Positions 2,739-26,159 of a DNA stretch of 26,169 bases are shown one piece after another. The stretch comes from Chlamydiota bacterium. GTDB taxonomy: Bacteria > Auribacterota > JACPWU01. The notes under the pieces are model-generated. The model did not search any database, had not been told where the DNA came from, and worked only from the letters and a program-made list of their open reading frames with translations. A program made the position numbers and the translations under genes. Numbering within the stretch: position 1 is the stretch's first letter; the number at the start of each line of letters is the position of its first letter. The stretch covers positions 1 to 26,169 of the forward strand of contig JACPWU010000018.1 of assembly GCA_016196885.1 (NCBI GenBank), given 5' to 3'.

Positions 2739-2814
2739 ATGATTTGTAAAGCTATTGATTCAGCATTACACTAGAAATAAAGCTTTTAAGAGATATCCAA
2801 AGAAGGAGAACAAC

Positions 2815-3399: not shown

Positions 3400-3411
3400 T
3401 TTGACGTTTGT

Positions 3412-3439
3412 CGAGCAACGATTCACGATATACGAGCAA
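3412..3439. repeat. tandem degenerate heptads CGANNNA x4
   Basis: The units are CGAGCAA CGATTCA CGATATA CGAGCAA, ending 8 nt before the hisH ATG. Confidence 0.5.
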
Positions 3440-3447
3440 CGGTTTTT

Positions 3448-4056
3448 ATGATCTCAATCATTGATTATGGAATGGGAAATTTGAGGAGCGTTGAGAAGGC
3501 CTTTGCGAGTTTGGGGTTTAAGGCTGAGATTACACGTGATCCAAAGACCATTTCTAAAAGCGATAAGGTTATTTTTCCTGGGGTGGGTGCCTTTGCACAG
3601 TGCATGAAGAATTTAAAGGGCTATGGTCTTGAGACAACCGTTTTAGAGGCGGCTCGCTCAGGCAAGCCTTTTCTTGGAATTTGCCTGGGGCTTCAAATGC
3701 TTTTTGAGGAAAGTGACGAGGGAGGACAGCATTTGGGGTTGGGAATTTTAAGAGGAAAAGTGATTCGATTTACAGGGAATATGAAAGTCCCTCACATGGG
3801 ATGGAATCAAATTTATTTTTCTTCAAGAGAGAGTGACTGCCCTATTTTAAAGGGAGTTTCATCGGGGAGTTATGTCTATTTTGTGCATTCTTATTATGGA
3901 ATCGCTCAAGAGGAAAAGGTGGTAGCGGCTCGGACGGACTATGGCGTACAATTTCCGTCTGTTGTTTGGAAAGATCATTTATTTGCCACGCAATTTCATC
4001 CTGAGAAAAGTCAGGAAGTGGGACTTAAAATTTTAAAAAATTTTGGAGAGCTGTAA
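3448..4056 (+). CDS. hisH: imidazole glycerol phosphate synthase, glutamine amidotransferase subunit
   Basis: 202-aa class-I GATase with a nucleophile-Cys context (GICLGLQMLF) and a C-terminal FHPEKS. Confidence 0.95.
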   Translation: MISIIDYGMGNLRSVEKAFASLGFKAEITRDPKTISKSDKVIFPGVGAFAQCMKNLKGYGLETTVLEAARSGKPFLGICLGLQMLFEESDEGGQHLGLGILRGKVIRFTGNMKVPHMGWNQIYFSSRESDCPILKGVSSGSYVYFVHSYYGIAQEEKVVAARTDYGVQFPSVVWKDHLFATQFHPEKSQEVGLKILKNFGEL

Positions 4057-4061
4057 AAACG

Positions 4062-4134
4062 GTACGTCGTACTTCGTGCATCGAACATCGATCGTTCCTT
4101 GTAGGTGAAGTACGAAGTACGATGTTCATAGCAC
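4062..4134. repeat. heptad-periodic complementary blocks (GTACTTC/GAAGTAC family)
   Basis: The left block is GTACGTC GTACTTC GTGCATC GAACATC GATCGTT (4062-4096). The right block is GAAGTAC GAAGTAC GATGTTC ATAGCAC (4107-4134). Confidence 0.7.
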
Positions 4135-4158
4135 GGTCTTATTTAAGGAGATTTTAAA

Positions 4159-4869
4159 ATGCTTGTGATTCCCGCAATTGATATTAAAGGTGGAAAATGT
4201 GTGCGTTTGACACAAGGTGATTTTTCGAAGGAGACGGTTTACGCGGAAGATCCATCTCAGATGGCCTTGCGCTGGCAAAATAAGGGCGCCAAATACCTGC
4301 ATGTCGTAGATTTAGATGGAGCCTTGGCGGGTCGGCCCGTGAATTATAAAACCATTCAAGAAATGACCATGGATCTTTTGGTGCCGTTTGAATATGGTGG
4401 AGGTATACGAGATTTTGAAAGTATTGAGAAAGCTCTTTCCTTGGGAGCGGACCGGGCTGTGTTAGGTACCATGGCTTACGAGTCGGAAGATTTTTTGGAG
4501 AGTGCGATTCGAGAATTTAAAAAGAGGGTGGCCGTAGCCATTGATGCCAAAGGGGGGCTTGTAGCGGTGAGTGGTTGGACGAAGGAAACAGCGGTAGATC
4601 CTGTTTTTCTGGCCAAACAAATGAAGAAGATGGGTGTGAGTGTGGTTATTTACACCGATATTCTTTCGGATGGTGCGTTAAAAGGGCCCAATTATAAGGC
4701 CATTGAATATTTGGTAGATTCCGTGAAAATGCCGATCATTGTTTCAGGAGGGGTGACCACAAAAGAAGATGTTGCGAGATTAAAAAATCTGGAACACAAG
4801 GGGGTCGTGGGCATGATTGTGGGCAAGGCGCTTTATACGGGAGATATTAAATTGGAAGAAGTGGTGTAG
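4159..4869 (+). CDS. hisA: ProFAR isomerase
   Basis: 236 aa with N-terminal VIPAIDIKGGKCVRL, a (beta/alpha)8 HisA pattern. AAGGAG lies 8 nt upstream of the ATG. Confidence 0.95.
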   Translation: MLVIPAIDIKGGKCVRLTQGDFSKETVYAEDPSQMALRWQNKGAKYLHVVDLDGALAGRPVNYKTIQEMTMDLLVPFEYGGGIRDFESIEKALSLGADRAVLGTMAYESEDFLESAIREFKKRVAVAIDAKGGLVAVSGWTKETAVDPVFLAKQMKKMGVSVVIYTDILSDGALKGPNYKAIEYLVDSVKMPIIVSGGVTTKEDVARLKNLEHKGVVGMIVGKALYTGDIKLEEVV

Positions 4870-4886
4870 TTAAATCAAAAATGACA

Positions 4887-4971
4887 ACAGTCGTGAGTCG
4901 TCTGTCGTGGGTCGTGAGTTTTAAAGGTATTATTTTTTACTCACGACTCACCCCTCACGACTCACGACTGT
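4887..4971. repeat. long heptad-based hairpin (GTCGTGA family) followed by T5
   Basis: The arms are 4887-4919 and 4939-4971. There are 15 perfect bp outside, a 9x9 internal loop, 9 perfect bp inside and a 19-nt loop. TTTTT at 4971-4975 overlaps the last stem base, and the AGGAG of hisF follows. Confidence 0.85.
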
Positions 4972-4986
4972 TTTTAGGAGTTTTTC

Positions 4987-5742
4987 ATGCTTGCCAAGCG
5001 TATTATCCCTTGCTTAGATGTCGACAAAGGTCGTGTTGTGAAGGGCGTTAAATTTTTAGGGCTGAAAGATGCAGGAGATCCTGTGGAGGTGGCTCGGCGT
5101 TATGATCAGGAGGGAGCCGATGAGTTGATTTTTTTGGATATCACGGCTTCATCGGAAAATCGCGGCCTGATTCTTGGCATCATTGAGAGAACAGCTGAGC
5201 AAGTTTTTATGCCACTGACGGTAGGTGGTGGGATTCAGAATCTGGAAGACATTCGTTCACTTCTGAAAGCAGGAGCGGACAAGATTTCTATTAATACGTC
5301 GGCTGTGAAAAGGCCGGAGTTGATTAAAGAGGCTTCAGATCGTTTTGGAAGTCAATGCATTGTGGTTGCGATAGATGCTCAAAAAAAAGGGGATGGCTGG
5401 GAAGTTTATACGCATGGAGGAAGGAACCCGACGGGTTTGGATGTCGTGGAGTGGGCTGCGCGTGTGGTGGAATTGGGCGCGGGCGAAATTCTTTTGACGA
5501 GCATGGATCGAGATGGAACAAAGGAAGGATACGATTTGGAATTGACTTGGGCCGTCTCGAGCGCCATTTCTGTTCCTGTGATTGCCTCAGGCGGGGCAGG
5601 TCGGCTGGATCATTTGTATGACGTTTTGGGTGAGGGAGGAGCTGATGCAGTTTTAGCGGCTTCCATTTTTCATTATCGAGAGTTTTTGATTTCAGATGCT
5701 AAGAAATTTTTAAAAGAAAGGGGAGTGGAGGTTCGCTTATGA
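4987..5742 (+). CDS. hisF: imidazole glycerol phosphate synthase, cyclase subunit
   Basis: 251 aa with [15 protein letters not shown] and SGGAG motifs. AGGAG lies 7 nt upstream. The stop overlaps the hisI start (ATGA). Confidence 0.96.
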
Positions 5743-6119
5743 AATTTAATTTGGAGTCTTTGAAATTTGATGAAAATGGTTTGATCCCTGTGATTATTCA
5801 AGATGAGAAAAACTTAGAAGTGCTGATGATGGCTTATATGAATTTGGATTCACTTCGAGAGACTCTGAAAGATGGAAAGACTTCGTTCTGGAGTCGGTCT
5901 CGCAAGAAATATTGGTTGAAGGGGGAAACCTCAGGACATTTTCAACATGTGAAATCTGTTTTTTATGATTGCGACAAAGACACCCTTCTGATCAAGGTAG
6001 AACAGATTGGCGGCGCTTGTCATGACGGCTATCGCTCCTGTTTTTATACGGAGTTGAAGGGGGATGAGACAAGAGTGCTGGGTGAGAAGGTGTTTGATCC
6101 TGAAAAAAAATATAAATAA
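5739..6119 (+). CDS. hisI: phosphoribosyl-AMP cyclohydrolase (HisI domain only)
   Basis: 126 aa with [17 protein letters not shown] and the Cys-rich ACH..YRSCF motif. It is too short to include the HisE pyrophosphohydrolase domain. Confidence 0.9.
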
Positions 6120-6122
6120 AAC

Positions 6123-6195
6123 CGTACTTCGTACGGCGAACTTCGAACATCGTTTTGAAAGGTTTTATTTTTCGAAGTACGAAGTACGAAGTACG
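6123..6195. repeat. long heptad-based hairpin (GTACTTC/CGAAGTA family)
   Basis: Left arm 6123-6147 pairs with right arm 6171-6195: 12 bp, a 5x5 internal loop (2 of its 5 positions can still pair), then 8 bp. The right arm is (CGAAGTA)x3. The loop is 23 nt. Confidence 0.85.
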
Positions 6196-6218
6196 ATGTC
6201 CGATATACGAGATTTAAA

Positions 6219-7730
6219 ATGATCCATCCATCTCGAGAAGAGTTTATTAAGAAAGTGAAACAGGGTAATTTAATTCCCGTTTATAAAGAAATCCTGGCGG
6301 ATTTTGAGACGCCGGTGTCTGCCTATTTAAAAATAGCGGATGGGGAGTATTCTTTCTTGCTCGAAAGTGTGGAGGGCAATGAAAAAGTCGGGCGCTATTC
6401 TTTTTTGGGGAGCTCTCCCAAGTGGATTTTCTCAAGCCAAGGGGAAAAAGTAACCTTTGAAGAAGGGATCTATACAAAGGCTTATTCTACTGCGGATCCT
6501 TTGCAGGAATTGAGAAAACTTTTAAAAATTTATCGCGTGGTGAAAGACGAGAATTTACCGAGATTTTTTGGGGGGGCTGTCGGCTATGTCGGCTACGGTA
6601 TGGTAAAATTTTTTGATGGCATTGCCCAAGATAAATCGAAGGATGAGGATTTACCTGATTTGTGCTTTATGTTGGCGGATACTTTATTGGCTTTTGACCA
6701 TGTTCAGCATCGCTTGAAGATTATGACCAATGCCTTTGTAGGAGAAGGGGCCCATCCCGAAAAAGTTTATGAAGAAGCTGTTCGAAAAGTTGAGGAGATT
6801 GAACAAAAATTACTTCAAGAAAAAAAGGCGATGATCATTTCTTTGGATTCGTCAGAGATTGCTTCTCATGAAGAGGCTATGTCTAATTTTTCTAAAAAGG
6901 ATTTTCAGGCCATTGTTGAGAAGTCCAAGGAATACATTCGAGCAGGGGATATTTTTCAGGTGGTTTTGTCTCAGCGATTTTGCGTGGATTTGAAGGTGGA
7001 TCCCATGACCCTTTATCGGGTCTTGAGAACGGTGAATCCTTCTCCCTATATGTTTCTTCTTAAATTTAAGAACTTTCATTTGGTGGGGACTTCTCCTGAA
7101 ATTTTAGTGCGGTGTGAAGAGGGGGTTGTGGAGGTTCGACCGATTGCGGGAACCAAGCCGAGGGGGAAGACGGCCGAAGAAGATCAGAAAAATGAGAAGG
7201 TCTTGCTCGAAGATCCTAAAGAACGCGCCGAACATATTATGCTGGTGGATTTGGGAAGGAATGACATTGGCCGCGTTTGCGAGTTTGGGTCCGTGCGTGT
7301 TTCTGAATTGATGGTGATTGAACGTTATTCTCATGTGATGCACATTGTTTCAAATGTGGTGGGAAAGCTTTCATCCGATAAAGATGCCTTTGACGTTTTG
7401 CGAGCAACCTTTCCTGCGGGAACCGTGACGGGCGCTCCTAAAATTCGGGCGATGCAAATTATTGAAGAATTAGAAAATGTGCATCGAGGCGTTTATGCGG
7501 GGGCCATTGGTTATTACAGTTTCTCAGGAGACTTGGATTCTTGCATTACGATCAGAACCATTCTTTTAAAAGATGGGAAAGCTTATGTTCAGGCGGGGGC
7601 CGGAATTGTGGCTGATTCTGTGCCGGAAAAAGAGCATCAAGAGTCTGTGAATAAGGCTAAGGCGATGATGAAGGCGATTGCAATTACGAAAAAGTTCAAA
7701 AGCTCAATCCCACGGGACTATAAAATCTGA
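6219..7730 (+). CDS. trpE: anthranilate synthase component I
   Basis: 503 aa with LLESVEG (Trp feedback region), GTKPRG and GAIGY chorismate-binding motifs. Confidence 0.95.
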
Positions 7731-7759
7731 GGTTTAAAGGTTCAAAGGAAAAACGAGAT

Positions 7760-8326
7760 ATGCTTCTGGTCATCGATAATTATGATTCATTTACGTATAA
7801 CCTTGTCCAATATTTCGGCGAGTTGGGACAAGATCCCAAGGTATTTCGCAATGACGAAATCACCGTTTCTGAAATTGAAAAACTTCACCCGCAATGGATT
7901 GTGATTTCTCCAGGGCCTTGCACTCCTCATGAGGCGGGGATTTCGAGTGAAGTCATTCGATCTCTGGGTGGGAAAATTCCGATTCTAGGGGTTTGTTTAG
8001 GGCATCAGTGTATAGGAGAAGTGTACGGGGGACAGATTGTGCGGGCTCCCAGATTGATGCATGGAAAAACGTCTCTCATTCATCACGATGGCAAAGGTCT
8101 TTTTCAAGGGATTAAAAATCCTTTTGAAGCGACGCGATATCATTCTTTGGTGATTGAACCTAAAAGTGTTCCTTCGGTGCTTGAGGTGACGGCCAAGACG
8201 GATCAAAATGAAATCATGGCGGTCCGTCATAGGAGTTTGCCAGTCTGGGGTGTTCAATTTCATCCAGAATCAATTTTAACGAAAGAGGGGAAGAAATTGC
8301 TGAATAATTTTTTGGGGATGAAATGA
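7760..8326 (+). CDS. trpG: anthranilate synthase component II (glutamine amidotransferase; possibly shared with PabA function)
   Basis: 188 aa with the GVCLGHQ nucleophile motif and FHPES. Position is between trpE and trpD. Confidence 0.9.
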
Positions 8327-8444
8327 GGTTATCCAAAAGTTCAATGATTCCCCTCCCTTGATGGGAGGGGTTAGGGGAGGGTGATCTTAAAGACACCCCC
8401 TCCCTAACCCTCCCCACAAAGGGGAGGGAATTTTTCGGATAGCC
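8327..8444. repeat. G-rich palindromic repeat element, copy A
   Basis: It forms a three-hairpin palindrome (CCCCTCCC-ttgat-GGGAGGGG; GGGGAGGGTG...CACCCCCTCC; CCCTCCCC-acaaa-GGGGAGGG) with outer arms GGTTATCCAAAAG / TTTTTCGGATAGCC. The reverse complement of 8349-8440 matches 18656-18746 almost exactly outside the central loop. Confidence 0.9.
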
Positions 8445-8463
8445 TAATTTTTTTGGGGAATCT

Positions 8464-9474
8464 ATGATTTTCAAAGATGCTCTTGAAAAGGTGATTCAAA
8501 GAGAGAATTTGTCGGCCAAAGAAGCCTCTTTTCTTATGGAAGAGATTATGATGGGCCATCTGACACCTGCTCAAATGGGGGCATTGCTGGTGGCTCTCAG
8601 AATGAAGGGTGAAACAGTAGAGGAAATTGCTGGCTTTGCGACAGTGATGCGCAAGATGGTGAGGGAGATTCATACCCATCATCCGATTGTGGTAGATACT
8701 TGTGGGACTGGAGGGGATGGGTTAAAGACTTTTAATATTTCTACAACGGCAGCATTTGTCGTAGCGGGTGCAGGAGTGCCTGTGGCCAAGCATGGAAATG
8801 TCGCAGTTTCGAGCGCTTGTGGTAGTGCGGACCTTTTGAAGGGTTTGGGAATTAAGATTGATGCAGATCGTTCTCTGATGGAAAAAGCTTTAAATGATTT
8901 GGGCATTTGTTTTCTTTTCGCCCCTCTTTTTCATCATGCGATGAAGCATGTTGCAACGCCTCGCCGAGAGTTGGGAATTCGAACGGTTTTTAATATTTTG
9001 GGTCCCTTGACCAATCCTGCTCGTGCCAAGGCGCAGGTGTTAGGTGTTTCTCGAAAAGATTTGGTTTCGACACTGGCGCAGGTATTGATGAAGTTAGGGA
9101 GTGAGCAGGCTTTTGTGGTTTATGGCGAAGATGGATCAGATGAGGTGACGACAACCTCCCTGACGCATGTGGCCCAGTTAAAAGAAGGTCACGTGAGGTA
9201 TTTTGAATTTAATCCAGAGGAATTGGGTATTGCACGCGCATCTCTTTCAGATTTGCAAGGGGGAGATCTTCAGACAAATGTAAAGATTTCTCAAAATATA
9301 TTGGAAGGGCAAAAGGGGCCTCCTCGAGATGTGGTTTTGGTGAATGCAGCTTTTGCGATTTTAGCGGGAAATGGGGCGCTGGACTTGAAAGAGGCTTTTC
9401 AAAAGGCCCAAGAGGCCATTGATTCGGGGAAGGCGAAGCAAAAATTAGAAGAATTGGCAAAATACACCTGTTGA
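8464..9474 (+). CDS. trpD: anthranilate phosphoribosyltransferase
   Basis: 336 aa with CGTGGDG and KHGN motifs. Confidence 0.95.
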   Translation: MIFKDALEKVIQRENLSAKEASFLMEEIMMGHLTPAQMGALLVALRMKGETVEEIAGFATVMRKMVREIHTHHPIVVDTCGTGGDGLKTFNISTTAAFVVAGAGVPVAKHGNVAVSSACGSADLLKGLGIKIDADRSLMEKALNDLGICFLFAPLFHHAMKHVATPRRELGIRTVFNILGPLTNPARAKAQVLGVSRKDLVSTLAQVLMKLGSEQAFVVYGEDGSDEVTTTSLTHVAQLKEGHVRYFEFNPEELGIARASLSDLQGGDLQTNVKISQNILEGQKGPPRDVVLVNAAFAILAGNGALDLKEAFQKAQEAIDSGKAKQKLEELAKYTC

Positions 9475-9597
9475 GACCTCTGAAAAAGGCCCATCTGCTT
9501 CGTTGCCTGCTTCGCTTAGTCGTGCGGCGTACTGGAAAACGTACGCCTCCTCCTTCGCTCGCAGGCGCCTTGCATCTGGGACCTTTTTGAGAGGTCT
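9474..9597. repeat. 124-nt imperfect palindrome (trpD-trpC spacer)
   Basis: Outer pairing is AGACCTCT (9474-9481) with AGAGGTCT (9590-9597) and AAAAAGG (9483-9489) with CCTTTTT (9582-9588). Further in, GCCTGC pairs with GCAGGC (9505-9510/9561-9566). The central hairpin is GGCGTAC-tggaaaac-GTACGCC (9527-9547). Confidence 0.7.
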
Positions 9598-9632
9598 TTA
9601 GAAATAAGAGTTTTTTAGAGGTTAAAAACCAT

Positions 9633-10421
9633 ATGTCAGTTTCATTTTTAGAAGAAATTATTCATCACAAAAGAATTGAAATAGAAGAGAGAAAAAGAAA
9701 TCTCTCCTTAGAAAATTTGATGACAGATGCCAATCTCAAAGTTAAAAGGGCTGATTTTGAGAAGGCGATCACTCGCCAGCCAGGTGGGCCTTTGCGGTTG
9801 ATTGCTGAGATTAAAAAGGCATCGCCTTCAAAGGGACTGCTTCGGAAAGATTTTCATCCGACGCAAATTGCCCAAACTTACGAGAAATATGGGGCTCATG
9901 CAATTTCTGTTTTAACGGATGAAAAATATTTTCAGGGGAGTTTGGATGATTTAAAGGCAGTTTCGGAAGTGGTTTCGCTGCCCTTGCTCAGAAAAGATTT
10001 TATTTTAGATGCATATCAAATTTATGAGGCAAAAGCTTATGGAACCAGTGCCATTTTATTGATTGTGGCCGCTTTGGAGAAAAATGAGTTGTCTTTGCTC
10101 TTGAAAGAAGCTGGGAAAATGGGTCTTTCTGTTTTGACGGAAGTTCATGATGAAAAGGAACTTGAAATTGCTTTGGAAGTAGGTGCAAACCTAATAGGGA
10201 TTAACAATCGAAATTTAAAAACTTTTGAAGTTGATTTAAAGAATTGTGGGAAGTTGATCCCAAAAATTCCCAAAGGAAAAAGAATCGTGATTGAGAGTGG
10301 CATTTTGAAACGGCAAGATGTGCTTTGGGTGGAGAGTCTTCCCGTAGATGCAATTTTGGTAGGTGAGGCGTTTATGCAGGCTCAGGATATGGGTGCAAAA
10401 ATAAGGGAGTTGATGCATTAA
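9633..10421 (+). CDS. trpC: indole-3-glycerol-phosphate synthase
   Basis: 262 aa with EIKKASPSKG and LRKDF motifs. Confidence 0.93.
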   Translation: MSVSFLEEIIHHKRIEIEERKRNLSLENLMTDANLKVKRADFEKAITRQPGGPLRLIAEIKKASPSKGLLRKDFHPTQIAQTYEKYGAHAISVLTDEKYFQGSLDDLKAVSEVVSLPLLRKDFILDAYQIYEAKAYGTSAILLIVAALEKNELSLLLKEAGKMGLSVLTEVHDEKELEIALEVGANLIGINNRNLKTFEVDLKNCGKLIPKIPKGKRIVIESGILKRQDVLWVESLPVDAILVGEAFMQAQDMGAKIRELMH

Positions 10422-10453
10422 ACGGACGACGATCGACGAACGACGAGATACGG
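10422..10453. repeat. tandem degenerate heptads ACGNNNN x5
   Basis: The units are ACGGACG ACGATCG ACGAACG ACGAGAT ACGG.., starting one base after the trpC stop and ending 8 nt before the trpF ATG. Confidence 0.6.
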
Positions 10454-10460
10454 TTTTTTT

Positions 10461-11075
10461 ATGGTGAAAGTCAAAATTTGCGGCATTACCAATTTAGAGG
10501 ATGCGCTTCAAGCAGTTGAAGCGGGCGCAGACGCTTTGGGTTTTAATTTTTATTCAAAGAGTCCGAGATGTTTGACTTCTAAACAGGCAAAGGAAATAAT
10601 GAGTCAGCTTCCCCCTTTTGTGACGTGCGTGGGTGTTTTTGTGAATGCAAAAAGGGAGGATGTTCAAAAAATTGTTGAAGAAACAGGAATAGAGATTGTT
10701 CAATTTCATGGGGATGAAAGACCGCAAGATTGTGAGCCGTTTTCGCGGGCGATGAAGGCTTTTAGAGTGGAAGATAAAATAGGGGATGTAAAATTATATG
10801 ATGGCATTTCTGCCATTCTGTTGGACGCATCCCATCAGGGAGACTACGGCGGTACGGGGAAAACATTTGATTGGAAGAAGGCAGAGCCTTTTCAAAAACT
10901 GGGAAAACCTTTGATTCTCTCAGGGGGGCTGGGTCCAGATAATGTCATGGAGGCTGTCCAAAAAGTAAGACCGTACGCAGTAGATGCGTGCAGTCGTTTA
11001 GAAGATTCGCCGGGCAAAAAGAATCATGAGTATATCAGGCTCTTCATCCGAAGGGCGAAAGAGGCCATAGAATGA
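10461..11075 (+). CDS. trpF: phosphoribosylanthranilate isomerase
   Basis: 204 aa with N-terminal VKICGIT and a C-terminal SGGL pattern. Confidence 0.9.
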   Translation: MVKVKICGITNLEDALQAVEAGADALGFNFYSKSPRCLTSKQAKEIMSQLPPFVTCVGVFVNAKREDVQKIVEETGIEIVQFHGDERPQDCEPFSRAMKAFRVEDKIGDVKLYDGISAILLDASHQGDYGGTGKTFDWKKAEPFQKLGKPLILSGGLGPDNVMEAVQKVRPYAVDACSRLEDSPGKKNHEYIRLFIRRAKEAIE

Positions 11076-11078
11076 TCG

Positions 11079-11349
11079 TGTATTTAAAAGTGTGTCCTTT
11101 TAAGAGGAGGCGGGTCCTGTCCCTCCTCACCCAGCAAGGCAGGTTTTTCTGCCGGTGGCAGAAAAACCTACCGCGGTAGTAAATGTTATTTTTCGTTTAT
11201 CAACTGACGGCACAGAGGTTATAGCCCCTGTGGGGTCGGTCTCGGTTTGGTTTTTGAAGAGTCATTTTCAAGTCTCGACCTGCTGGCGATCAGCGGGGGA
11301 CCCCCAGTCGGGCCACCCGCATCCATAAAAGGACACACTTTTAAATACA
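11079..11349. other. unclassified GC-rich structured element bounded by perfect 24-bp inverted repeats (candidate ncRNA or MITE/PATE-like element)
   Basis: TGTATTTAAAAGTGTGTCCTTTTA (11079-11102) is the exact reverse complement of 11326-11349. Each arm is itself a 7-bp hairpin (TTAAAAG-tgtgtc-CTTTTAA). The interior holds a perfect 13-bp hairpin (11141-11153/11157-11169), a 7-bp hairpin (11104-11110/11122-11128) and a 7-of-8 hairpin (11211-11218/11225-11232). GCATCCATA is directly repeated at 11319-11327 and 11350-11358, flanking the right arm. Confidence 0.7.
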
Positions 11350-11360
11350 GCATCCATAGA

Positions 11361-11394
11361 ATATCTCTAGTAAATTTTAATTTACTAGAGATAT
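11361..11394. promoter_or_regulatory. perfect 16-bp-arm palindrome (candidate operator)
   Basis: ATATCTCTAGTAAATT-tt-AATTTACTAGAGATAT. The right half overlaps the -35 of the putative ATPase promoter. Confidence 0.55.
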
Positions 11395-11410
11395 GTATTT
11401 GTGGTAATAT
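11382..11410 (+). promoter_or_regulatory. putative sigma70-type promoter of the inserted ATPase gene
   Basis: TTACTA (11382-11387), a 17-nt spacer, then TAATAT (11405-11410) preceded by TGG (extended -10 like). It lies 22 nt upstream of the ATG, with AGAGG in between. Confidence 0.45.
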
Positions 11411-11431
11411 ATTATTTACCAGAGGTATTCT

Positions 11432-12871: not shown

Positions 12872-12921
12872 TGAGAAACATACATGACTTTCAGTCACAA
12901 AGGGGGATGAAAATCACCCTT

Positions 12922-12966
12922 GTAGTCGCCCCATTTATGGGGCTGCCCGATGAATCGGGCGACTAC
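12922..12966. repeat. REP-like GTAG...CTAC element with two internal hairpins
   Basis: The outer stem GTAGTCGC (12922-12929) with GCGACTAC (12959-12966) encloses CCCCA-ttta-TGGGG (12929-12942) and GCCCGA-tgaa-TCGGGC (12945-12960). The helices share edge bases, so not all can form at full length together. Confidence 0.6.
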
Positions 12967-13013
12967 AATTCATCATAACTTATTGTATAAGAACAACTAA
13001 AGACTATTTTCAG

Positions 13014-16130: not shown

Positions 16131-16134
16131 TTTT

Positions 16135-17822: not shown

Positions 17823-17840
17823 ATAGTAGGAAATAAAAAC

Positions 17841-17945
17841 AATGACCAATATCCAATTTCAAATGTCAAATGAATGACCAATGACCACTTTCCAATTGGA
17901 CATTGGATCATTGGAAATTAACTTGTCATTTGTCATTGGACATTT
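17841..17945. repeat. heptad-periodic imperfect palindrome (AATGACC / ATTGGAC / GTCATTT family)
   Basis: About 15 consecutive 7-nt units (AATGACC AATATCC AATTTCA AATGTCA AATGAAT GACCAAT GACCACT TTCCAAT TGGACAT TGGATCA TTGGAAA .. GTCATTT GTCATTG) are centred on CCAATTGG (17892-17899). Confidence 0.8.
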
Positions 17946-17962
17946 CTGTTTTGTGGGTTTTT

Positions 17963-18640: not shown

Positions 18641-18655
18641 TTCCCTTATTAGTGT

Positions 18656-18746
18656 ATCCGAAAAGTTCCCTCCCCCTTGTGGGGAGGGTTAGGGAGGGGG
18701 TGCTTGAGCTCACCCTCCCCTAACCCCTCCCATCAAGGGAGGGGAA
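18656..18746. repeat. G-rich palindromic repeat element, copy B (inverted relative to copy A)
   Basis: Compared with the reverse complement of 8349-8440, the arms are identical except for 2 mismatches, and the 34-nt right arm is exact. Only the central loop differs. Confidence 0.9.
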
Positions 18747-18793
18747 TAATAGGGTTTTTGACAGTCTGAGTCGGAGGGGTTAAGGGTTTTAAA

Positions 18794-20593: not shown

Positions 20594-20597
20594 AAAA

Positions 20598-20625
20598 CAG
20601 AAGACAGAAGACAGAAGACAGAAAA
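20598..20625. repeat. tandem heptads (CAGAAGA)x3 plus a degenerate 4th unit
   Basis: There are three perfect CAGAAGA units followed by CAGAAAA, beginning 5 nt after the lepA stop. Confidence 0.85.
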
Positions 20626-20631
20626 ACATAG

Positions 20632-20656
20632 ATCCCCGATTAGTACACTCGGGGAT
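20632..20656. repeat. CCCCGA hairpin
   Basis: ATCCCCGA (20632-20639) pairs with TCGGGGAT (20649-20656) around a 9-nt loop. The stem type matches those at 2641-2664 and 12945-12960. Confidence 0.6.
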
Positions 20657-20678
20657 GACTAAAAATGAGGACTAAAAT

Positions 20679-22884: not shown

Positions 22885-22954
22885 TCCATGGTCCACAGTC
22901 CATAGAAATAAATCATTCCTTTAGAACCGTGGACTATTGACTGTGGACTATGGA
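22885..22954. repeat. heptad-based hairpin (GTCCACA/GTCCATA family)
   Basis: TCCATGGTCCACAGTCCATAG (22885-22905) pairs with CTATTGACTGTGGACTATGGA (22934-22954) at 19 of 21 positions, with a 28-nt loop. It starts 1 nt after the upstream stop and covers ATG 22950. Confidence 0.8.
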
Positions 22955-24272
22955 CTTGTTTATGCCTTCAAAAAAAGAACATGCCCTTTACATTATTAGT
23001 ACCCTTCGCCAAACAGGCTTCGAAGCCCTTTTTGCAGGCGGATGTGTCCGGGACATGGTCATGGGCAAAGAGCCCCATGATTATGATATTGCGACTCGCG
23101 CTCTTCCCGAAGAGGTCATGAAAATTTTTCCCAGAACGGTTCCCGTCGGGGTCCAGTTTGGAGTGGTTCTGGTGCTTTGCGAGGACGAACAATTTGAAGT
23201 TGCCACTTTTCGTTCCGAGGGAGGATACACAGACGGTCGTCATCCAAGCTGCGTTAAATTTACCTCAAGCCGTGAAGATGTTTTGAGACGGGATTTTACC
23301 GTCAATGGTCTTCTTTACGATCCCCAAGAAAATAAAGTCATTGATTATGTTGGAGGTGTCAAAGACATTGAGAGAAAAATCATTCGCACCATTGGCAATC
23401 CCCGCCAAAGATTTGAGGAGGATAAACTTCGGCTTTTAAGGGCGGTTCGGTTTGCCACCCATTTAGAATTTGAAATAGAGCCTGAAACTTTTAGAACCAT
23501 TCTGGAACTTTCTTCCCAAATTTCAGCGGTCAGTGCCGAGAGAATTCGCGATGAATTGGTCAAAATTTTTACGGGCCCTCATCCAGGAAAGGGGCTCGAT
23601 CTTTTAAGCCAAACAGGTCTCCTGAAAATGATTTTACCGGAAGTCGAGGCCATGAAAGGGGTGGAGCAACCTCCCGAATTTCATCCCGAAGGAGATGTGT
23701 ATATTCACACCAAAATGTTGCTCGATCAAATAAGCAGTGTTGACAGGATACTCGCGCTGGGCGCACTTCTTCACGATGTTGGAAAACCTCCCACAAAGAC
23801 CCTTTCAGATCGAATCCGATTTAACAATCACCAAAATGTCGGGGCACGGATGTCCGAAGAAATTCTAAAACGCCTCCGTTTTTCAAATGACGATATTGAA
23901 GACATCACGGCCTGTGTCCAAAATCACATGACCTTCAAGGATGTCAAAGAAATGAGGGTCGCCAAACTCAAGCGCTTCATGGCCAGGCCTACGTTTGCAG
24001 CGGAACTGGAACTCCATCGCATTGACTGCCTGGCCAGTCACGGGATCTTAGAAAATTGGCACTTTCTGAAGGAAAAATATGAAGAATTTCAAAAAGAAGT
24101 TCCTCGTCCCAAACCCCTTCTTACGGGAAATGATTTGATTCAAATGGGCTATCAACCCGGTCCCCGCTTTAAAGAAATCCTAACCGCCGTCGAAGATGCC
24201 TGCCTTGAAAAAACTCTAAACACATCGCAAGGGGCGATGACCTGGGTACAGAAGCATTTCCCTTTACCGTGA
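22950..24272 (+). CDS. cca: CCA-adding tRNA nucleotidyltransferase with HD domain (poly(A) polymerase family)
   Basis: Class-II nucleotidyltransferase head (FAGGCVRD..DYDIAT) plus an HD motif (LLHDVGKP). The first ATG (22950) lies inside a hairpin arm, so ATG 22962 (MPSKKEH) is an equally plausible start. Confidence 0.82.
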   Translation: MDLFMPSKKEHALYIISTLRQTGFEALFAGGCVRDMVMGKEPHDYDIATRALPEEVMKIFPRTVPVGVQFGVVLVLCEDEQFEVATFRSEGGYTDGRHPSCVKFTSSREDVLRRDFTVNGLLYDPQENKVIDYVGGVKDIERKIIRTIGNPRQRFEEDKLRLLRAVRFATHLEFEIEPETFRTILELSSQISAVSAERIRDELVKIFTGPHPGKGLDLLSQTGLLKMILPEVEAMKGVEQPPEFHPEGDVYIHTKMLLDQISSVDRILALGALLHDVGKPPTKTLSDRIRFNNHQNVGARMSEEILKRLRFSNDDIEDITACVQNHMTFKDVKEMRVAKLKRFMARPTFAAELELHRIDCLASHGILENWHFLKEKYEEFQKEVPRPKPLLTGNDLIQMGYQPGPRFKEILTAVEDACLEKTLNTSQGAMTWVQKHFPLP

Positions 24273-24281
24273 TAGGGCGTT

Positions 24282-24491
24282 TTAGATCAGATCTTTAAAT
24301 TCTTCTTCGCTAAGACCAGAGTCTTTGATGATGGATTTTAAGGTATAAGGGTTGATTCTCTTATGACGCGGAATGGTTAGATGGTGTTTACTGTCAGACA
24401 TGCCGATGTGTTTACCCTGCTTTATGATTCTAAATCCTACTTTGGAGAAAGCGTTAACAATTCTCTCAGAGGAGAGATCAGTGAATAACAT
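24282..24491 (-). CDS. hicA: HicA-family (YcfA-like) mRNA interferase toxin
   Basis: 69 aa with the pattern GFRIIKQGKHIGMSD...LTIPRHKRINPYTLKSIIKDSGLS, typical of HicA/YcfA. The start overlaps the hicB stop in TAATG (shared base 24491). Confidence 0.82.
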   Translation of the reverse strand: MLFTDLSSERIVNAFSKVGFRIIKQGKHIGMSDSKHHLTIPRHKRINPYTLKSIIKDSGLSEEEFKDLI

Positions 24492-24700
24492 TAGATTGCT
24501 ACCTCAACTTCATAAAGAGAGCCCTTAGATTCTTCCGAAATCATTTCAAGATAGGTGTGGATGGCGTCTTTGATATTCTCCAGTGCTTCTTCCAAAGTAT
24601 CTCCCTGACTGTGACATCCTGGTAGAAGGGGACAGTGAATATCATAGCCATACTCGCTTTTATGAACAACAACAGGATATTTCATGGTAAAAAAACCCAT
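24491..24700 (-). CDS. hicB: HicB-family (UPF0150) antitoxin, core domain only
   Basis: 69 aa with YPVVVHKSEYGYDIHCPLLPGCHSQGDTLEEALENIKDAI, the HicB N-domain signature. There is no appended HTH/RHH DNA-binding domain. Confidence 0.82.
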   Translation of the reverse strand: MGFFTMKYPVVVHKSEYGYDIHCPLLPGCHSQGDTLEEALENIKDAIHTYLEMISEESKGSLYEVEVAI

Positions 24701-24751
24701 CCTCTCTAGGATATAACTATATCAGATTGATTCATTCTGTCCATTCATTTG

Positions 24752-24994
24752 CTACAACATTTTCTTAAGCACTTCTTGCCAGGGGAGAATAAATATGTTG
24801 TCCTCTCTTTTTTCAACTTGACCCCAATAAGCGATGCAGAGATGGCAGGTCCTGCCATAAAATTCAGCGAAATTTTTAAGGCCGCGTAAATCTGTAGAAT
24901 TCACATTCGTAGAAGCCTTCAGTTCAACAAATTGAATGTACATATTGTGGTCGTAATACCGCGTAAAATGACCACATGTCAACAAAGCTCTTAA
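24752..24994 (-). pseudogene. C-terminal remnant of a second AAA_14/DUF4143-type ATPase
   Basis: The translation (..RYYDHNMYIQFVELKAS...IFILPWQEVL) parallels the C-terminal end of the 11432-12871 protein (..DFIV..ILEVGSG...VVRVPLEFFL). The ATPase domain is absent. The 117-aa track ORF (to 25105) has a non-homologous N-part that overlaps the next gene. Confidence 0.5.
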
Positions 24995-25070
24995 AATACA
25001 CAAAAAAACAACAAAATTTTGACCTTTTCTCCTCTTTAAATGTCCTATTCTAAAAGAGGAGTTCTTTAAA

Positions 25071-26159
25071 GTGACGATTCTGTCTCGATTGATCCAAAAA
25101 TGCATCAGCTTGGTATTATGTCTTTCTTTCCTAACTTATGATATCACAGTGAGTTATGGTCAAGACATGCAGATTTCTGGCATGGTGAAGGCTTCTTCTA
25201 CCCCTGTTGAGTTCAAAGAGCTACTCGAAAACATTCAAATTCCCAATGAAATAGGTGAAATCATTGACCAAAAAATAGTTCCCAATCGACCCATGCTTTA
25301 CATCATTGAAGACATTCACTGCCACAGTGAGGTTCAGGCGAATATTGCAAGGATATTAAAACAGTTAGAAGTTAAAAGTTCAAAGTTGGAAGAAAAAAAT
25401 AAAGAGACCTTTAAAACTTCCAACTTCCAACATCTAACTTCTAACCGTTTTTACGTCTTTTCCGAAGGCTCTGTCAACAAGATGGACATGAGCTTCTTTA
25501 CCGGATTCCCTGACAAAGAGGCCCTACAAAAGGCGCAAAGCAAATTCATAAAAGACCATTCCATTAATGGAGTGGAGGCCTTTCTGATAGGAGAAGGAAA
25601 TCATATGGCAGAAGGTCTCGGTGCAGAAGACCTATCAGCTTATGTCGACAACATCAAATTCATGGGCGAATTTATGGAAGAGAAAGAGCTTCAGGAACAG
25701 GTCTGGAGTAATCTCGAAGAAACTTTTAAAAATTTGAGAAAAAAGATTTATTCTCCCGAATTATTAGAACTCATGAATAAACGGGATCAATATAGCCAAT
25801 TCAAAATAGGGGTGAAGGAATATGTTTCTTATCTATTGGATGAAGAATCTAAGTCTTCTCAATATCCAACCATTCAAAAATTCACAGAACTCCAAGTTCT
25901 CGAAGAAGAAACAGACATATCAAAAGTAGAAAGTGAATACCTTGCATTCCTTTCTGAATTAGAAAAGAAGCTTCCCAAAGAAGAATTAAACGAAGTTTTG
26001 AAAAATGTCTTAGAACATCGGTTGGGGAGAATCAGTGATCAGGAGCATTATTTGTTTTTAAGTCGATATCTAGACGCGGAAGGTGGAGAGGGTTTCTCCC
26101 CTCTTTTTTTCAATCCCACAGGAACTATAAAATCTCGAGAGGGGTCGGGGGGGAGTTAG
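25071..26159 (+). CDS. hypothetical secreted/membrane-anchored protein, Glu/Lys-rich
   Basis: 362-aa ORF from GTG with GAGGAG 9 nt upstream and a hydrophobic signal-like N-terminus (CISLVLCLSFL). I recognise no family with confidence. It contains an in-frame heptad hairpin (25364-25445), and its 3' end runs into a G-rich repeat, so the true stop and extent are uncertain. Confidence 0.55.
   Translation: MTILSRLIQKCISLVLCLSFLTYDITVSYGQDMQISGMVKASSTPVEFKELLENIQIPNEIGEIIDQKIVPNRPMLYIIEDIHCHSEVQANIARILKQLEVKSSKLEEKNKETFKTSNFQHLTSNRFYVFSEGSVNKMDMSFFTGFPDKEALQKAQSKFIKDHSINGVEAFLIGEGNHMAEGLGAEDLSAYVDNIKFMGEFMEEKELQEQVWSNLEETFKNLRKKIYSPELLELMNKRDQYSQFKIGVKEYVSYLLDEESKSSQYPTIQKFTELQVLEEETDISKVESEYLAFLSELEKKLPKEELNEVLKNVLEHRLGRISDQEHYLFLSRYLDAEGGEGFSPLFFNPTGTIKSREGSGGS
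25364..25445. repeat. heptad-based hairpin (AGTTNNA / AACTTCC family) inside the predicted ORF
   Basis: Arms 25364-25392 and 25417-25445 are complementary at 25 of 29 positions (11 perfect bp outside, 9 perfect bp inside), with a 24-nt A-rich loop. TTTTT lies at 25448-25452. Confidence 0.8.

Follow-up and report, generated by a model that had tools for sequence, protein, structure and literature searches.

Heptanucleotide-periodic arrays and hairpins between and within genes of a Chlamydiota-labelled bacterium

Heptamer repeats described in other bacteria

STRR heptamer units were reportedly described in cyanobacteria by Mazel and co-workers in 1990. The stretch of 26,169 nucleotides analysed here (the window) holds TGACCAA at 17875-17881, which we take to be the reverse complement of the STRR unit TTGGTCA. 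The resemblance to these repeats remarked on in a first-pass annotation holds: (AATGACC)2 at 17873 is the cyclic unit of a Nostoc 7120 array, (GAC[C/T]AAT)x8 upstream of recO (bioRxiv 10.1101/2022.06.06.494920), AATGACC being GACCAAT rotated, one identical unit. Both systems place tandem heptanucleotides near starts and in spacers, with several families per genome. Here, however, the host, an uncultured bacterium, is not cyanobacterial, as the annotation had judged (its NCBI label is 'Chlamydiae/Chlamydiota bacterium'), the STRR-type unit occurs at only one two-copy locus, and the arrays are short (~4 units), degenerate and mostly paired in hairpins.

Rehm et al. (2015, PMC4692102) described heptamer SSRs between genes in Xanthomonas and Nostoc (GGGNATC / GGGGA[C/T]T). 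These likewise have units with conserved and free positions, such as (GGGANTN)n, most often number about four units, and include some inverted, stem-loop-capable copies. They form one G-rich, G-quadruplex-prone family per genus, whereas here many non-G-rich families occur in one genome, mostly as hairpin doublets, several of them in frame in genes, in a Chlamydiae-labelled host. Geobacter metallireducens carries multicopy four-heptad elements (GGACCGG in 49 copies; MTYCTGA x5; Aklujkar et al. 2009, PMC2700814), which are similarly discrete (4-5 heptads), multicopy and dispersed between and within genes. Those belong to one GC-rich consensus family that was read as regulatory, with no hairpin doublets described; here there are many families, which turn over quickly from one sister genome to the other.

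MacGregor (2015, PMC4679880) described TAACTGA direct repeats in Beggiatoaceae, cyanobacteria and Bacteroidetes. They are comparable in that arrays of 2-6 heptamers stand immediately before start codons, in genomes where Shine-Dalgarno sequences are weakly used, and in sharing one unit across phyla with no known transfer mechanism. Their counterparts in our material are (CTGANNN)x9 in the relative L088 and an ACTCACG variant found also on a Bacteroidota contig. A single unit dominates the TAACTGA repeats, with 169 direct sets to 1 indirect, whereas inverted doublets predominate here.

In overall architecture the elements resemble REPINs, doublets of REP sequences that form hairpins (Bertels & Rainey 2011, PMC3116915). 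These too are inverted doublets of a ~30-nt repeat with a short spacer, dispersed and extragenic, with singlets that are likely remnants and a family content that varies strongly among related genomes. REP units, however, are imperfect palindromes, usually with GTAG/CGTC tags, one family per RAYT, and extragenic; the heptad arms are non-palindromic, many families coexist, and some copies lie in frame within genes. Rickettsia palindromic elements (PMC10969869) also form in-frame inserts in unrelated genes and are translated as extra peptide segments, but they are ~100-150 bp long, follow a family consensus, lack heptad periodicity and belong to Alphaproteobacteria.

Period-7 signal and structures of the window

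The period-7 signal in the window is real, specific and strong. In spacers of less than 400 nt, autocorrelation gives a lag-7 identity of 0.340, where 500 dinucleotide shuffles yield 0.259±0.0097 (z=8.4), a comparison of the kind that the first-pass annotation had suggested; lag-14 identity in the same spacers is 0.32, and the coding DNA of the window displays period 3 only. A lag-k array detector found nine arrays at k=7 in the window and none at k=4-6 or k=8-12, and TRF returned 11 period-7 rows, with heptad structures where they had first been noticed. The density of k=7 arrays is ~17 times that of unrelated HisF loci (1.35 Mb), in which 27 arrays at k=7 were nonetheless detected versus 4 at k=5 or k=8. 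A published survey of long SSRs is in line with this over-representation of heptamers in unrelated bacteria.

Table 1. Heptad loci of the window. dG is given in kcal/mol, z is the fold score against shuffles, and SD stands for Shine-Dalgarno.
Locus	Position	Strand	Form	dG	z	TRF	Units	Surroundings
hisB–hisH spacer	3404..3441	+	single-arm degenerate heptad array, spacer-filling, unstructured		+0.57		(NNN-ACGA)x5-6	3' end ACGG-T5-ATG, without SD
hisH–hisA spacer	4062..4134	+	hairpin	-32.1	-3.2	yes	5' GTACNTC x4 (4062-4091); 3' GAAGTAC-type x4 (4106-4134)	intact GGAG SD downstream
hisA–hisF spacer	4887..4972	+	hairpin, loop ~18 nt	-52.7	-9.2		5' GTCGTGN x4 (4887-4920); 3' ACTCACG x4 (4939-4972)	then T5 run and GGAG SD
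hisI–trpE spacer (his/trp junction)	6123..6213	+	hairpin	-32.0	-4.1	yes, 100% matches (3' arm)	5' GTACTTC-type x4 (6123-6152); 3' (6172-6213) perfect (CGAAGTA)x3.4, then CGATGTC CGATATA CGAGAT	
trpC–trpF spacer	10422..10453	+	single-arm array, unstructured		+1.4		(ACGANNN)x4 + ACGG	begins at base 1 after trpC stop; then T7-ATG (trpF), without SD
M16 peptidase–rpe spacer	17841..17945	+	complex hairpin	-36.2	-2.4	yes	AATGACC/AATNTCA (17841-17887) opposite ATTGGAC/GTCATTT (17895-17945)	
lepA–lepB spacer	20597..20626	+	perfect single-arm array, unpaired in predicted fold			yes, 100% matches	(ACAGAAG)x3.9	separate CCCCGA/TCGGGG hairpin 3' of array (20631-20657)
clpX-like–cca spacer	22885..22957	+	hairpin	-32.0	-5.8	yes	TCCANNG x3 (22885-22905) opposite CNNTGGA x4 (22929-22957)	begins at base 1 after stop codon
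conserved hypothetical protein (ORF 25071-26159)	25364..25445	+	in-gene hairpin	-30.1	-7.5		AGTTNNA x4 opposite AACTTCN x4	in-frame peptide LEVKSSKLEE…KTSNFQHLTSN

Six of the nine loci (4057, 4870, 6120, 17823, 22885 and 25355) fold strongly, at -30 to -53 kcal/mol and z from -2.4 to -9.2; the other three (3404-3441, 10422-10453, 20597-26) are single arms. The NCBI gene-call starts of rpe (17963) and cca (22962) leave both adjoining arrays wholly intergenic. The first-pass annotation had counted at least ten spacers and spoken of almost every one: the number comes down to eight intergenic spacers out of ~15 of at least 25 nt, the rest of which hold different palindromic repeats, and the ninth locus lies in frame inside a conserved ORF. 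Several hairpins besides the one at 4870 precede T-rich tracts.

As had been proposed, the second arm is the heptad-wise complement of the first: complementarity is maximal at register shifts of 0, ±7, ±14 and ±21 and low at ±1-3, with registers 0, ±7 and ±14 giving almost equal pairing. In the GTCGTGA family all four arms contain exactly 4 units. Stem mismatches comprise 11 G·U and 17 A·C, no excess of G·U in this small sample (n=28). The search for compensatory arm changes that had been suggested found no double-sided change in the orthologous hairpin pair P0124/P0125. Rfam gave no match for the window structures, a terminator scan flagged none of the hairpins on the + strand, and no GTAG/CGTC terminal tag was found on the heptad arms, which by fold analysis are not palindromic in themselves.

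Copies between loci, within genes and among relatives

The idea that each locus uses its own heptad family had to be abandoned. All five his–trp spacer arrays read (ACGANNN)n on the sense strand, with the ACGA core in common; the elements at 4057 and 6120 are 75% identical copies, and the arrays at 3400 (hisB–hisH) and 10422 (trpC–trpF) are 78% identical. The phenomenon also extends beyond the window, as a second contig of this genome, L094, carries some of these heptad families again. Over 42 nt, window positions 4933-4974 are 97.6% identical to the opposite strand of L094 6186-6227, and an irregular ACTCACC-CCTCACG unit is part of the match; the homology spans ~61 nt, reaching into the loop and the terminal ACTGTTTT, and the L094 copy retains the hairpin base with one arm missing. 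The lepA–lepB array shares 93% identity with one that lies within valS (L094 2063-2092). Within 48 kb of the source genome, the ACAGAAG, ACTCACG and AGTTNNA families have at least two loci each, at least eight different cores are present, and copies of the same family run both with and against transcription. Inverted doublets have the conserved termini AAAACAGT…ACTGTTTT. The arrays are thus dispersed multi-copy families with conserved flanks, and their doublets REPIN-like in architecture, which undoes the contrast previously drawn with REP/BIME families on the ground that no consensus is shared.

Arrays also enter protein-coding genes. Homologues of ORF 25071-26159 share 47-51% identity, with conserved blocks on both sides of the hairpin site, and in its paralogues and orthologues the same site is occupied by hairpins of other heptad families. 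At two linker sites the P0123/P0125/P0126/P0124 family has hairpins, built from differing heptad families, that fold at -31 to -58 kcal/mol; the P0124/P0125 hairpin is 84% identical in nucleotides, the proteins overall 55% in amino acids. The valS array is in frame; compared with T. thermophilus ValRS, its 42 nt (6 units) add 14 residues. In uvrB one array supplies the C-terminus and the stop codon.

Among relatives the distribution is patchy. Arrays are carried by the window and by L083, L087, L091 and L088, with a different core per lineage, a core being shared only between the sister pair L087/L091; cores are wholly different even between genomes with 80% identical housekeeping proteins. 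Some of these relatives have arrays at the same junctions as the window, made of other units, and the hisI–trpE junction has a hairpin in five lineages (the window and four others), with differing units. In L085/86, L089 and L092 synteny is conserved, operons are compact and arrays are absent. Separately, a bona fide GTAG-tagged, REP-like palindrome is common to two sister genomes.

Possible origins of the arrays

The reading that we favour, with about even confidence, takes the structures for copies of small dispersed repeats that are non-autonomous, have heptad arms, are kept by DNA-level slippage, template switching and copying, and accumulate where tolerated. They look like fast-evolving, largely selfish DNA rather than a dedicated regulatory system, and look related to heptamer repeats already known from cyanobacteria, Xanthomonas and Geobacter. 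Counted in favour are the specific period 7, the copies between loci and in frame, both orientations, the patchy relatives and strand-symmetric mismatches. The building block is an arm of ~4 degenerate heptads (28-34 nt), each unit combining a conserved core of 4-5 nt with 2-3 variable positions. Some arms stand alone; others are paired as inverted doublets of ~80-110 nt, which fold into hairpins, an architecture resembling REPINs with heptad arrays in place of palindromic REPs. The perfect unit runs fit slippage in a 7-nt register; misaligned hairpins and intra-hairpin (quasi-palindrome) template switching may then keep drifting arms heptad-periodic and complementary. Since near-identical copies with shared flanks exist, families are copied between loci, possibly by ectopic template switching, gene conversion or an enzyme acting in trans. 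Accumulation would take place wherever it is tolerated: between cistrons, in the few bases that separate a stop codon from the next ribosome-binding site, and in proteins as in-frame placements in variable loops and linkers. Effects on polycistronic mRNA are probably side effects: translation would be uncoupled, or 3' exonucleases blocked, by stable hairpins, and U-rich leaders that are unstructured and lack a Shine-Dalgarno would be another such effect. Of the two options in the first-pass annotation, a process seeding arrays and their complements thus fares better, except that the arrays are copied between loci, not seeded uniquely at each.

Several observations weigh against this model of dispersed elements. 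The conserved 4-nt core, free positions and recurring arms of ~4 units look like constraint of a kind not obviously expected from pure neutrality; the hairpin is retained through large divergence at hisI–trpE and at site 1 of the paralogue family, which could point to selection instead of recurrent insertion or self-renewal; and the P0124/P0125 hairpin is better conserved than its proteins. In ~48 kb of the source genome neither a mobilising enzyme nor a transposition footprint was seen. The model gives no reason for the period of 7, for which the sole published idea is a polymerase footprint affecting slippage.

The other option, selection for inter-cistronic hairpins, seems unlikely to us. 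On this view the hairpins would act in cis on polycistronic mRNAs, whether as REP-like barriers to 3' exonucleases, as processing sites or as partial terminators, and would set the relative expression of the his and trp cistrons. Stable hairpins do stand right after stops and spare the downstream Shine-Dalgarno, T5 follows the 4870 hairpin and T-rich tracts several others, and the hisI–trpE hairpin persists in five lineages with its sequence fully turned over. Against selection stand the three unstructured single arms, members of the same families in frame within ORFs and in both orientations, some close relatives with the same operon and no arrays, the lack of a G·U over A·C excess or compensatory change, and the negative terminator (+ strand) and Rfam scans.

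We find it improbable that the arrays are landing sites where an oligomeric or cooperative protein binds single-stranded nucleic acid with a 7-nt step and tunes translation initiation. The protein might be of the cold-shock-domain type, ribosomal protein S1, or a HutP-like one reading a short core every 7 nt. The unit design and ~4 units per arm would suit such a protein, as would single arms that abut start codons without Shine-Dalgarno and are less structured than shuffles; comparable proposals exist for the TAACTGA repeats (PMC4679880) and the Nostoc heptamers (bioRxiv 10.1101/2022.06.06.494920). The diversity of cores within one genome and between genomes of similar housekeeping proteins, the two orientations of a single family and the arrays within coding sequences all argue against it.

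Quite doubtful, too, is the suggestion that the doublets belong to the REPINs proper, or to a sister class of these, and are mobilised by a Y1 (RAYT/IS200-605-like) transposase, unlinked and single-copy, that recognises the hairpin. In its favour are the inverted arrangement with conserved termini, copies both ways round and remnant-like singlets (L094 6186-6227), and the tagged palindrome of the sister genomes suggests that a RAYT may be present. The arms are nevertheless neither palindromic nor GTAG/CGTC-tagged, many unrelated families occur together rather than one REP family per RAYT, the 48 kb of source genome contain no transposase, and in-frame coding insertions are atypical of REPINs.

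Growth of each array in situ, by slippage of a chance heptamer, with hairpins from local inverted duplication and no copying between loci, is very improbable and largely refuted. It accords with the perfect runs at 6173 (x3.4) and 20597 (x3.9) and with the heptamer excess in unrelated bacteria, but not with copies across contigs that include an irregular unit, loop and flanks, with the homology of different spacers, or with the constant 4-unit arm length within a family. Finally, the source is a MAG contig, yet the chance that assembly or binning of short-read metagenomes created the arrays is practically negligible: independently made Logan assemblies match exactly, also within the arrays, over stretches of 3171 nt and 9882 nt, in-ORF arrays keep reading frames intact, and several MAGs from different samples contain arrays.

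To return to the dispersed-repeat reading, the spacers host other dispersed repeats as well, from which it follows that the lineage tolerates spacer invasion.

Periodicity and folding of the arrays

The window sequence is that of contig JACOUD010000077.1 of MAG GCA_016178005.1. Its + strand carries the his operon (hisD, C, B, H, A, F, I), the trp operon (trpE, G, D, C, F, an inserted AAA_14/DUF4143 ATPase gene, trpB, A), manC, ruvX, an M16 peptidase gene, rpe, lepA, lepB and genes for a ClpX-like ATPase, a CCA-adding enzyme and a hypothetical protein; a HicA/HicB pair lies on the - strand. NCBI names the proteins 'Chlamydiae/Chlamydiota bacterium', in line with the first-pass annotation, which had considered the host non-cyanobacterial.

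In spacers shorter than 400 nt, identity at lag 7 reaches 0.340, against 0.259±0.0097 in 500 dinucleotide-preserving shuffles of these spacers (z=8.4), and it is likewise raised at lag 14; coding DNA displays period 3 only. The period-7 signal suspected at first sight is thus well above shuffled controls, and TRF returns 11 period-7 rows at the positions where the first-pass annotation had placed heptads, with perfect runs only at 6173 and 20597. A detector of degenerate arrays, set to a minimum of 16 matches out of 21 at lag k, yields nine in the window for k=7 and zero for k=4-6 and 8-12. Applied to 1.35 Mb of unrelated HisF-centred loci, it finds 27 at k=7 versus 4-6 at k=5, 8, 10 and 11. 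Heptads are generally favoured in bacteria, and the window is about 17 times denser in them than this HisF background; the HisF probe is too conserved for finding relatives (best match 73% identical), and its 80 loci serve as background only. The arrays consist of head-to-tail 7-nt units beyond chance, as do prokaryotic long simple-sequence repeats (LSSRs) in the definition quoted in PMC4679880 and PMC4692102 (head-to-tail 7-nt units, longer or more frequent than chance).

An assembly artefact is ruled out, since independent Logan assemblies are identical across the arrays (0 mismatches in 3171 nt and in 9882 nt). Altogether, the observation is real and statistically strong, and its earlier description needed correction: heptads do occupy the spacers, in eight rather than at least ten cases, among about 15 spacers of at least 25 nt, the others holding different repeats.

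Six of the nine loci form strong hairpins (dG -30 to -53 kcal/mol; z -2.4 to -9.2 versus shuffles) with loops of 18-25 nt; two single arrays are no more structured than shuffles and another stays unpaired in the fold (Table). The proposal that the second arm is the heptad-wise complement of the first holds well, complementarity between the halves peaking at shifts of 0, ±7, ±14 and ±21 and being low at ±1-3. The best register is little above those at ±7 (for example, 34 vs 26/24, or 29 vs 28/28), so that the conserved cores carry most of the pairing and the hairpins are 'slippery'. In spacers with a Shine-Dalgarno sequence, the arrays lie between it and the upstream stop codon; in two window spacers, an array and a U-tract stand in for it.

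The heptad hairpins do not have the form of an intrinsic (Rho-independent) terminator, taken as a short GC-rich stem with a 3-8-nt loop and then a U-tract; the 4870 hairpin alone has T5 directly after it. A consensus terminator scan of positions 1-13100, uninformative for long-loop hairpins, flagged no heptad hairpin on the + strand, and Rfam 15 gave no match at gathering score in the whole window.

Positions, units and folding of arrays, other repeats and associated genes in the window and related sequences
Feature	Sequence	Position (nt)	Unit or sequence	Remark
his operon	window	276-6119		+ strand
AAA_14/DUF4143 ATPase gene	window	11432-12871		+ strand
HicA/HicB pair	window	24282-24685		- strand
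Single array	window	3404-3441		z +0.6
Single array	window	10422-10453		z +1.4
Array	window	20597-20626		unpaired in fold
hisI–trpE junction	window		GTACTTC/GAAGTAC
hisI–trpE junction	L083		AAAATCA/TGATTTT
hisI–trpE junction	L087 and sister L091		NNTGCGT/ACGCANN
hisI–trpE junction	L088		NNNATCA/(CTGANNN)x9
Linker site 1	last-ORF protein, window		AGTTNNA/AACTTCN	-31 kcal/mol
Linker site 1	P0125, window's genome		GGAAGCT/AGCCTCC	-55 kcal/mol
Linker site 1	P0126, sister genome		GCTCGAA/CCTCGAG	-51 kcal/mol
Linker site 1	P0124, sister genome		P0125-type unit	-56 kcal/mol
valS array	L094	2045-2102	(A/T)CAGAAG, six units	in frame, translated RKTEDRSQKSEDRKNKS
102-nt nested palindromic element	window	8347-8448	GGGAGGG/CCCTCCC-rich	fills trpG–trpD spacer
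102-nt nested palindromic element	window	18648-18747	GGGAGGG/CCCTCCC-rich	fills rpe–lepA spacer
MITE-like element, ~121 nt	window	9475-9597	GACCTCTGAAAAAGG…CCTTTTTGAGAGGTC	trpD–trpC spacer
MITE-like element, copy	L094	19421-19541		87% identical
Solo hairpin	window	2579-2595	GACCTTTTTAAGAGGTC	after hisC
GTAG-tagged REP-like palindrome	window	~12922-12966	GTAGTCGCCCCATTTATGGGGCTGCCCGATGAATCGGGCGACTAC
GTAG-tagged REP-like palindrome	L083	10831-10895		hisA–hisF spacer
GTAG-tagged REP-like palindrome	L095	92, 1199-1252
271-nt element	window	11079-11349	TGTATTTAAAAGTGTGTCCTTTTA	perfect 24-bp terminal inverted repeats
GC-rich REP-like hairpin	window	2640-2666	CCCCGAT-loop-ATCGGGG / CCCCGA…TCGGGG	hisC–hisB spacer
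GC-rich REP-like hairpin	window	20631-20657	CCCCGAT-loop-ATCGGGG / CCCCGA…TCGGGG	lepA–lepB spacer, z=-3.3
Period-8 repeat	window	7731-7759	AGGTTCAA x2.4	29-nt trpE–trpG spacer

Shared families, dispersed copies and arrays inside genes

Contrary to the first-pass annotation, in which each locus had its own heptad family, families are common to several loci of the window and to L094, a second contig of its genome (JACOUD010000031.1, 21.9 kb) that surfaced in a paralog search. On the sense strand, (ACGANNN)n makes up the gene-proximal arm, or the single array, of every one of the five his–trp spacers. The spacers at 4057 and 6120 are copies of one element (75% identical); those at 3400 and 10422 are 78% identical and have a common ending, ACGG-T5-7-ATG. 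Nor are the arrays restricted to the window: L094 has six to eight lag-7 arrays (intergenic lag-7 z 2.6). Its valS contains (ACAGAAG)n, 93% identical to the window's 20597-20626 array, ACTCACG x4 overlaps the stop of a glycosyltransferase gene, and P0125, a paralog of the window's last ORF, contains an AGTTNNA array. A his/trp-specific regulator acting on the ACGA repeats (TRAP- or HutP-like) is out, as the core family is also found at uvrB–nadC and at the glycosyltransferase gene.

Window positions 4933-4974 and L094 6186-6227, on the opposite strand, are 97.6% identical over 42 nt, spanning an irregular ACTCACC-CCTCACG unit and the flanking A/T runs. Gapped homology of ~61 nt takes in the terminal ACTGTTTT and reaches into the hairpin loop; read the other way round, it runs into the 5' flank ATCAAA..AACAGTCGTG. 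Since irregular unit, loop and flanks are shared, independent slippage, judging from these alignments, cannot yield such likeness; the loci are therefore copies of one discrete element, ~100 nt long, whose termini are inverted and whose arms comprise four heptads each. In L094 the copy has retained the base of the hairpin but not one of the arms, and uvrB takes its final residues and stop codon from it.

Slippage at each locus, as for an LSSR with variable copy number and unshared flanks, is not the pattern found: flanks, irregular unit and a fixed four-unit length are common across loci. The inverted termini of the 4870-family element (AAAACAGT…ACTGTTTT) would fit a MITE, taken here as an IS-derived element with terminal inverted repeats and target-site duplication; neither a target duplication nor a parent IS was identified for this family.

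Arrays also reside within genes. The hairpin at 25364-25445, first described as intergenic, lies in frame in the ORF 25071-26159, whose homologs (47-51% identical) have conserved blocks on either side of it. In-frame hairpins of differing families occupy this linker (site 1) across the protein family (Table), so the 'same site, different family' pattern holds in ORFs as at operon junctions. A second site has further arrays or hairpins in P0125, P0126 and P0124 (-58 kcal/mol) and none in the window. The valS array of L094, placed between the two Cys pairs, makes the enzyme 14 residues (42 nt) longer there than T. thermophilus ValRS.

Relatives and known repeat classes

HisA homologs are 75-81% identical within the clade and 63-64% in the outgroup, then fall to ~52%. 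The HisA+F+I tree is ((window, L083), (L087, L091), L089, L085), (L088, L092), where L083 comes from the sister genome of the window, and these relatives keep the genes in the order his–trp–manC–ruvX–M16. L085/L086, L089/L090 and L092 are array-free; in their compact operons, genes overlap or are set 1-29 nt apart, with a Shine-Dalgarno sequence in the spacer. The remaining relatives have arrays at the same junctions, made of other units (Table). Neighbouring spacers within a genome have a common core: ACGA in the window, AAAAT/AAAGT in L083, ACGCA in L087. The comparison of orthologous spacers proposed in the first-pass annotation thus revealed presence and absence, patchy within the clade, but no double-sided compensatory changes in the arms; the L087/L091 pair, with too few substitutions to decide, had none.

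Near HisF, paired inverted degenerate heptad arrays forming hairpins also occur in the background loci L004, L009, L029, L046, L066, L071 and L073, from MAGs labelled Nitrospirota, Thermodesulfobacteriota, Binatia, Peptococcaceae, Manganitrophaceae and 'Deltaproteobacteria'; the inverted architecture is therefore phylogenetically widespread.

We know of no accepted origin or function for the excess of 7-nt tandem repeats in bacteria. In intergenic DNA it has been noted since 1990 (STRR) and 2007 (long-SSR survey). The clade is a good system for tracing the origin of these repeats. It is a natural experiment, with conserved his–trp order, array-free versus array-rich members, family replacement at the same junctions, in-frame protein copies and dispersed copies within a genome. 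Questions that it can address are whether such repeats are selfish or functional, maintained at the DNA or the RNA level, and slipped in place or copied between loci.

Membership among the STRRs fails on units and host. Of CCCCAGT, TTGGTCA and CAACAGT, which we take to be the STRR units, only the TTGGTCA class is represented, at 17873-17887 as (AATGACC)x2.1; all other loci use other units, and the proteins are those of a '[Chlamydiae bacterium]' in NCBI, not of a heterocystous cyanobacterium. None of the literature searched reports heptamer repeats for Chlamydiae. Elhai et al. (2008) reportedly described small dispersed repeats of Nostoc.

REP/REPIN membership fails as well. The inverted-doublet hairpins at six of nine loci parallel the doublet architecture of REPINs (PMC3116915), but single arms are unstructured against shuffles and are not 20-40-nt imperfectly palindromic units, arm termini, read directly, bear no GTAG/CGTC tag, and many families coexist. 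No transposase (RAYT and Y1 included) is present among the genes of the window and L094, ~48 kb of the source genome. Rickettsia palindromic elements, which are ~100-150 bp long, follow a family consensus and insert into genes in frame (PMC10969869), parallel this lineage in their in-frame genic copies; heptad periodicity and host differ.

The closest known system is the heterogeneous intergenic heptamer SSRs of Xanthomonas and Nostoc, whose units combine conserved with free positions, most often number four and are in part arranged as inverted pairs; these SSRs occupy the same intergenic sites with variable sequence (PMC4692102). Next are the four-heptad multicopy elements of Geobacter, located both within and between genes (PMC2700814); arrays of about four units recur in Xanthomonas and Geobacter as in the window (PMC4692102, PMC2700814). 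They are followed by the TAACTGA repeats, upstream of start codons and common to several phyla, with a transfer mechanism that is not known (PMC4679880). Nostoc heptamers near start codons include the window unit AATGACC/GACCAAT (bioRxiv 10.1101/2022.06.06.494920).

An element-specific 23-mer matched exactly a single contig in the JGI metagenome collection (L096, JGI Ga0307416_100000113), with no further match from the source organism. The TyrRS of L096 is 85-91% identical to Cyclobacteriaceae/Chryseosolibacter proteins, which assigns the contig to Bacteroidota (Cytophagales-like). At 13650-14133, within a ~143-nt tandem repeat, it has a cluster of ACTCACG arrays including the irregular unit of the window element; 29 nt of one array are identical to the window's 4939 arm. 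A heptamer 'vocabulary' shared across phyla is not relied on: the exact unit matches (8 vs 2.0 expected) are not robust, one being ascertainment-biased and two coming from related Binatia, and matches with at most one mismatch are not in excess (55 vs 51.5).

Maintenance of the arrays and accompanying repeats

Selection at the RNA level is expected to tolerate G·U and not A·C oppositions. There is no such bias in the stems of 15 hairpins, where Watson-Crick oppositions number 286, transversion mismatches 51, G·U 11 and A·C 17. The P0124/P0125 hairpins (84% nt identity) differ by transitions only, split about evenly between G·U-type and A·C-type; this pair, the only orthologous one similar enough, has no double-sided compensatory change, with too few substitutions to decide. 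Relative to transcription, one family is found either way round, GTCGTGA being the sense sequence at L094 6191 and ACTCACG at L094 20289. Mismatch symmetry and the two orientations, as well as the copies within ORFs and the relatives lacking arrays, disfavour sequence-specific RNA recognition and selection on RNA pairing, and favour a strand-symmetric process at the DNA level.

Our preferred reading of the structures is that of small dispersed elements, built of heptad arrays and originating at the DNA level, a variant among known, poorly understood bacterial heptamer repeats. Their arms have about four degenerate heptads with a conserved core, dispersed copies are near-identical including flanks, and tolerated sites accumulate them. 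Slippage would proceed in a 7-nt register, and the arms may stay periodic and complementary during sequence drift through misaligned hairpins and template switching at quasi-palindromes, which is known as an error of replication. The copying of families between loci, perhaps preferring nearby ones, would be due to ectopic template switching, gene conversion or a putative trans-acting enzyme. In mRNA, the elements could uncouple translation, act as exonuclease barriers and produce leaders without a Shine-Dalgarno sequence. The only published idea on period 7, as quoted in PMC4679880 and PMC4692102, is that ~7 nt corresponds to the polymerase-contacting segment.

A further-reaching possibility, which we consider rather improbable, is that heptad hairpins constitute a distinct self-renewing repeat class, quasi-palindromes that slip, self-correct and overwrite each other via the 7-nt register. 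Such a class may persist for long at fixed 'landing pads' (operon junctions, protein linkers) while its sequence is replaced. A putative, possibly dedicated copying activity may spread unit families within a genome and also from phylum to phylum; the ACTCACG variant in both a Chlamydiae-labelled MAG and a Bacteroidota contig suggests the latter. If true, such an activity would account for the long-noted excess of heptamer repeats in bacteria.

Small elements of DNA-level origin, the reading we retain, are relevant to MAG annotation because they lengthen spacers, remove or replace ribosome-binding sites, make new C-termini and insert peptides in essential enzymes, ValRS among them.

Other repeats lie in the same spacers (Table). 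The two copies of the 102-nt element are mutually inverted, 91% identical and not heptad-periodic. The ~121-nt element has terminal inverted repeats, which the solo hairpin after hisC resembles. The GTAG-tagged palindrome, common to source and sister genomes, suggests that a RAYT-type system may exist in both. The 271-nt element lies just upstream of the AAA_14/DUF4143 ATPase gene, and the two split the trp operon between trpF and trpB, genes that are 2 nt apart or overlapping in relatives. The trpE–trpG spacer holds no heptads and ends in ACGAGAT-ATG; ACGAGAT is also the terminal 7-mer of the arrays preceding trpE and is found close to trpF. With such repeats in its spacers, the heptad-bearing lineage is evidently permissive to invasion by small repeats, the heptad elements being the most numerous class.

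In the window (276-15046) and L083-L092, complete his and trp operons are fused, co-directional and followed by manC–ruvX–M16 peptidase. This cluster is kept across the clade down to 63% HisA identity, a biosynthetic capacity unusual for the Chlamydiae label. Toxin–antitoxin modules are dense, with HicA/HicB in the window and MNT/HEPN (HepT), PIN, PemK and AbiEii on the related contigs L083, L094 and L095.
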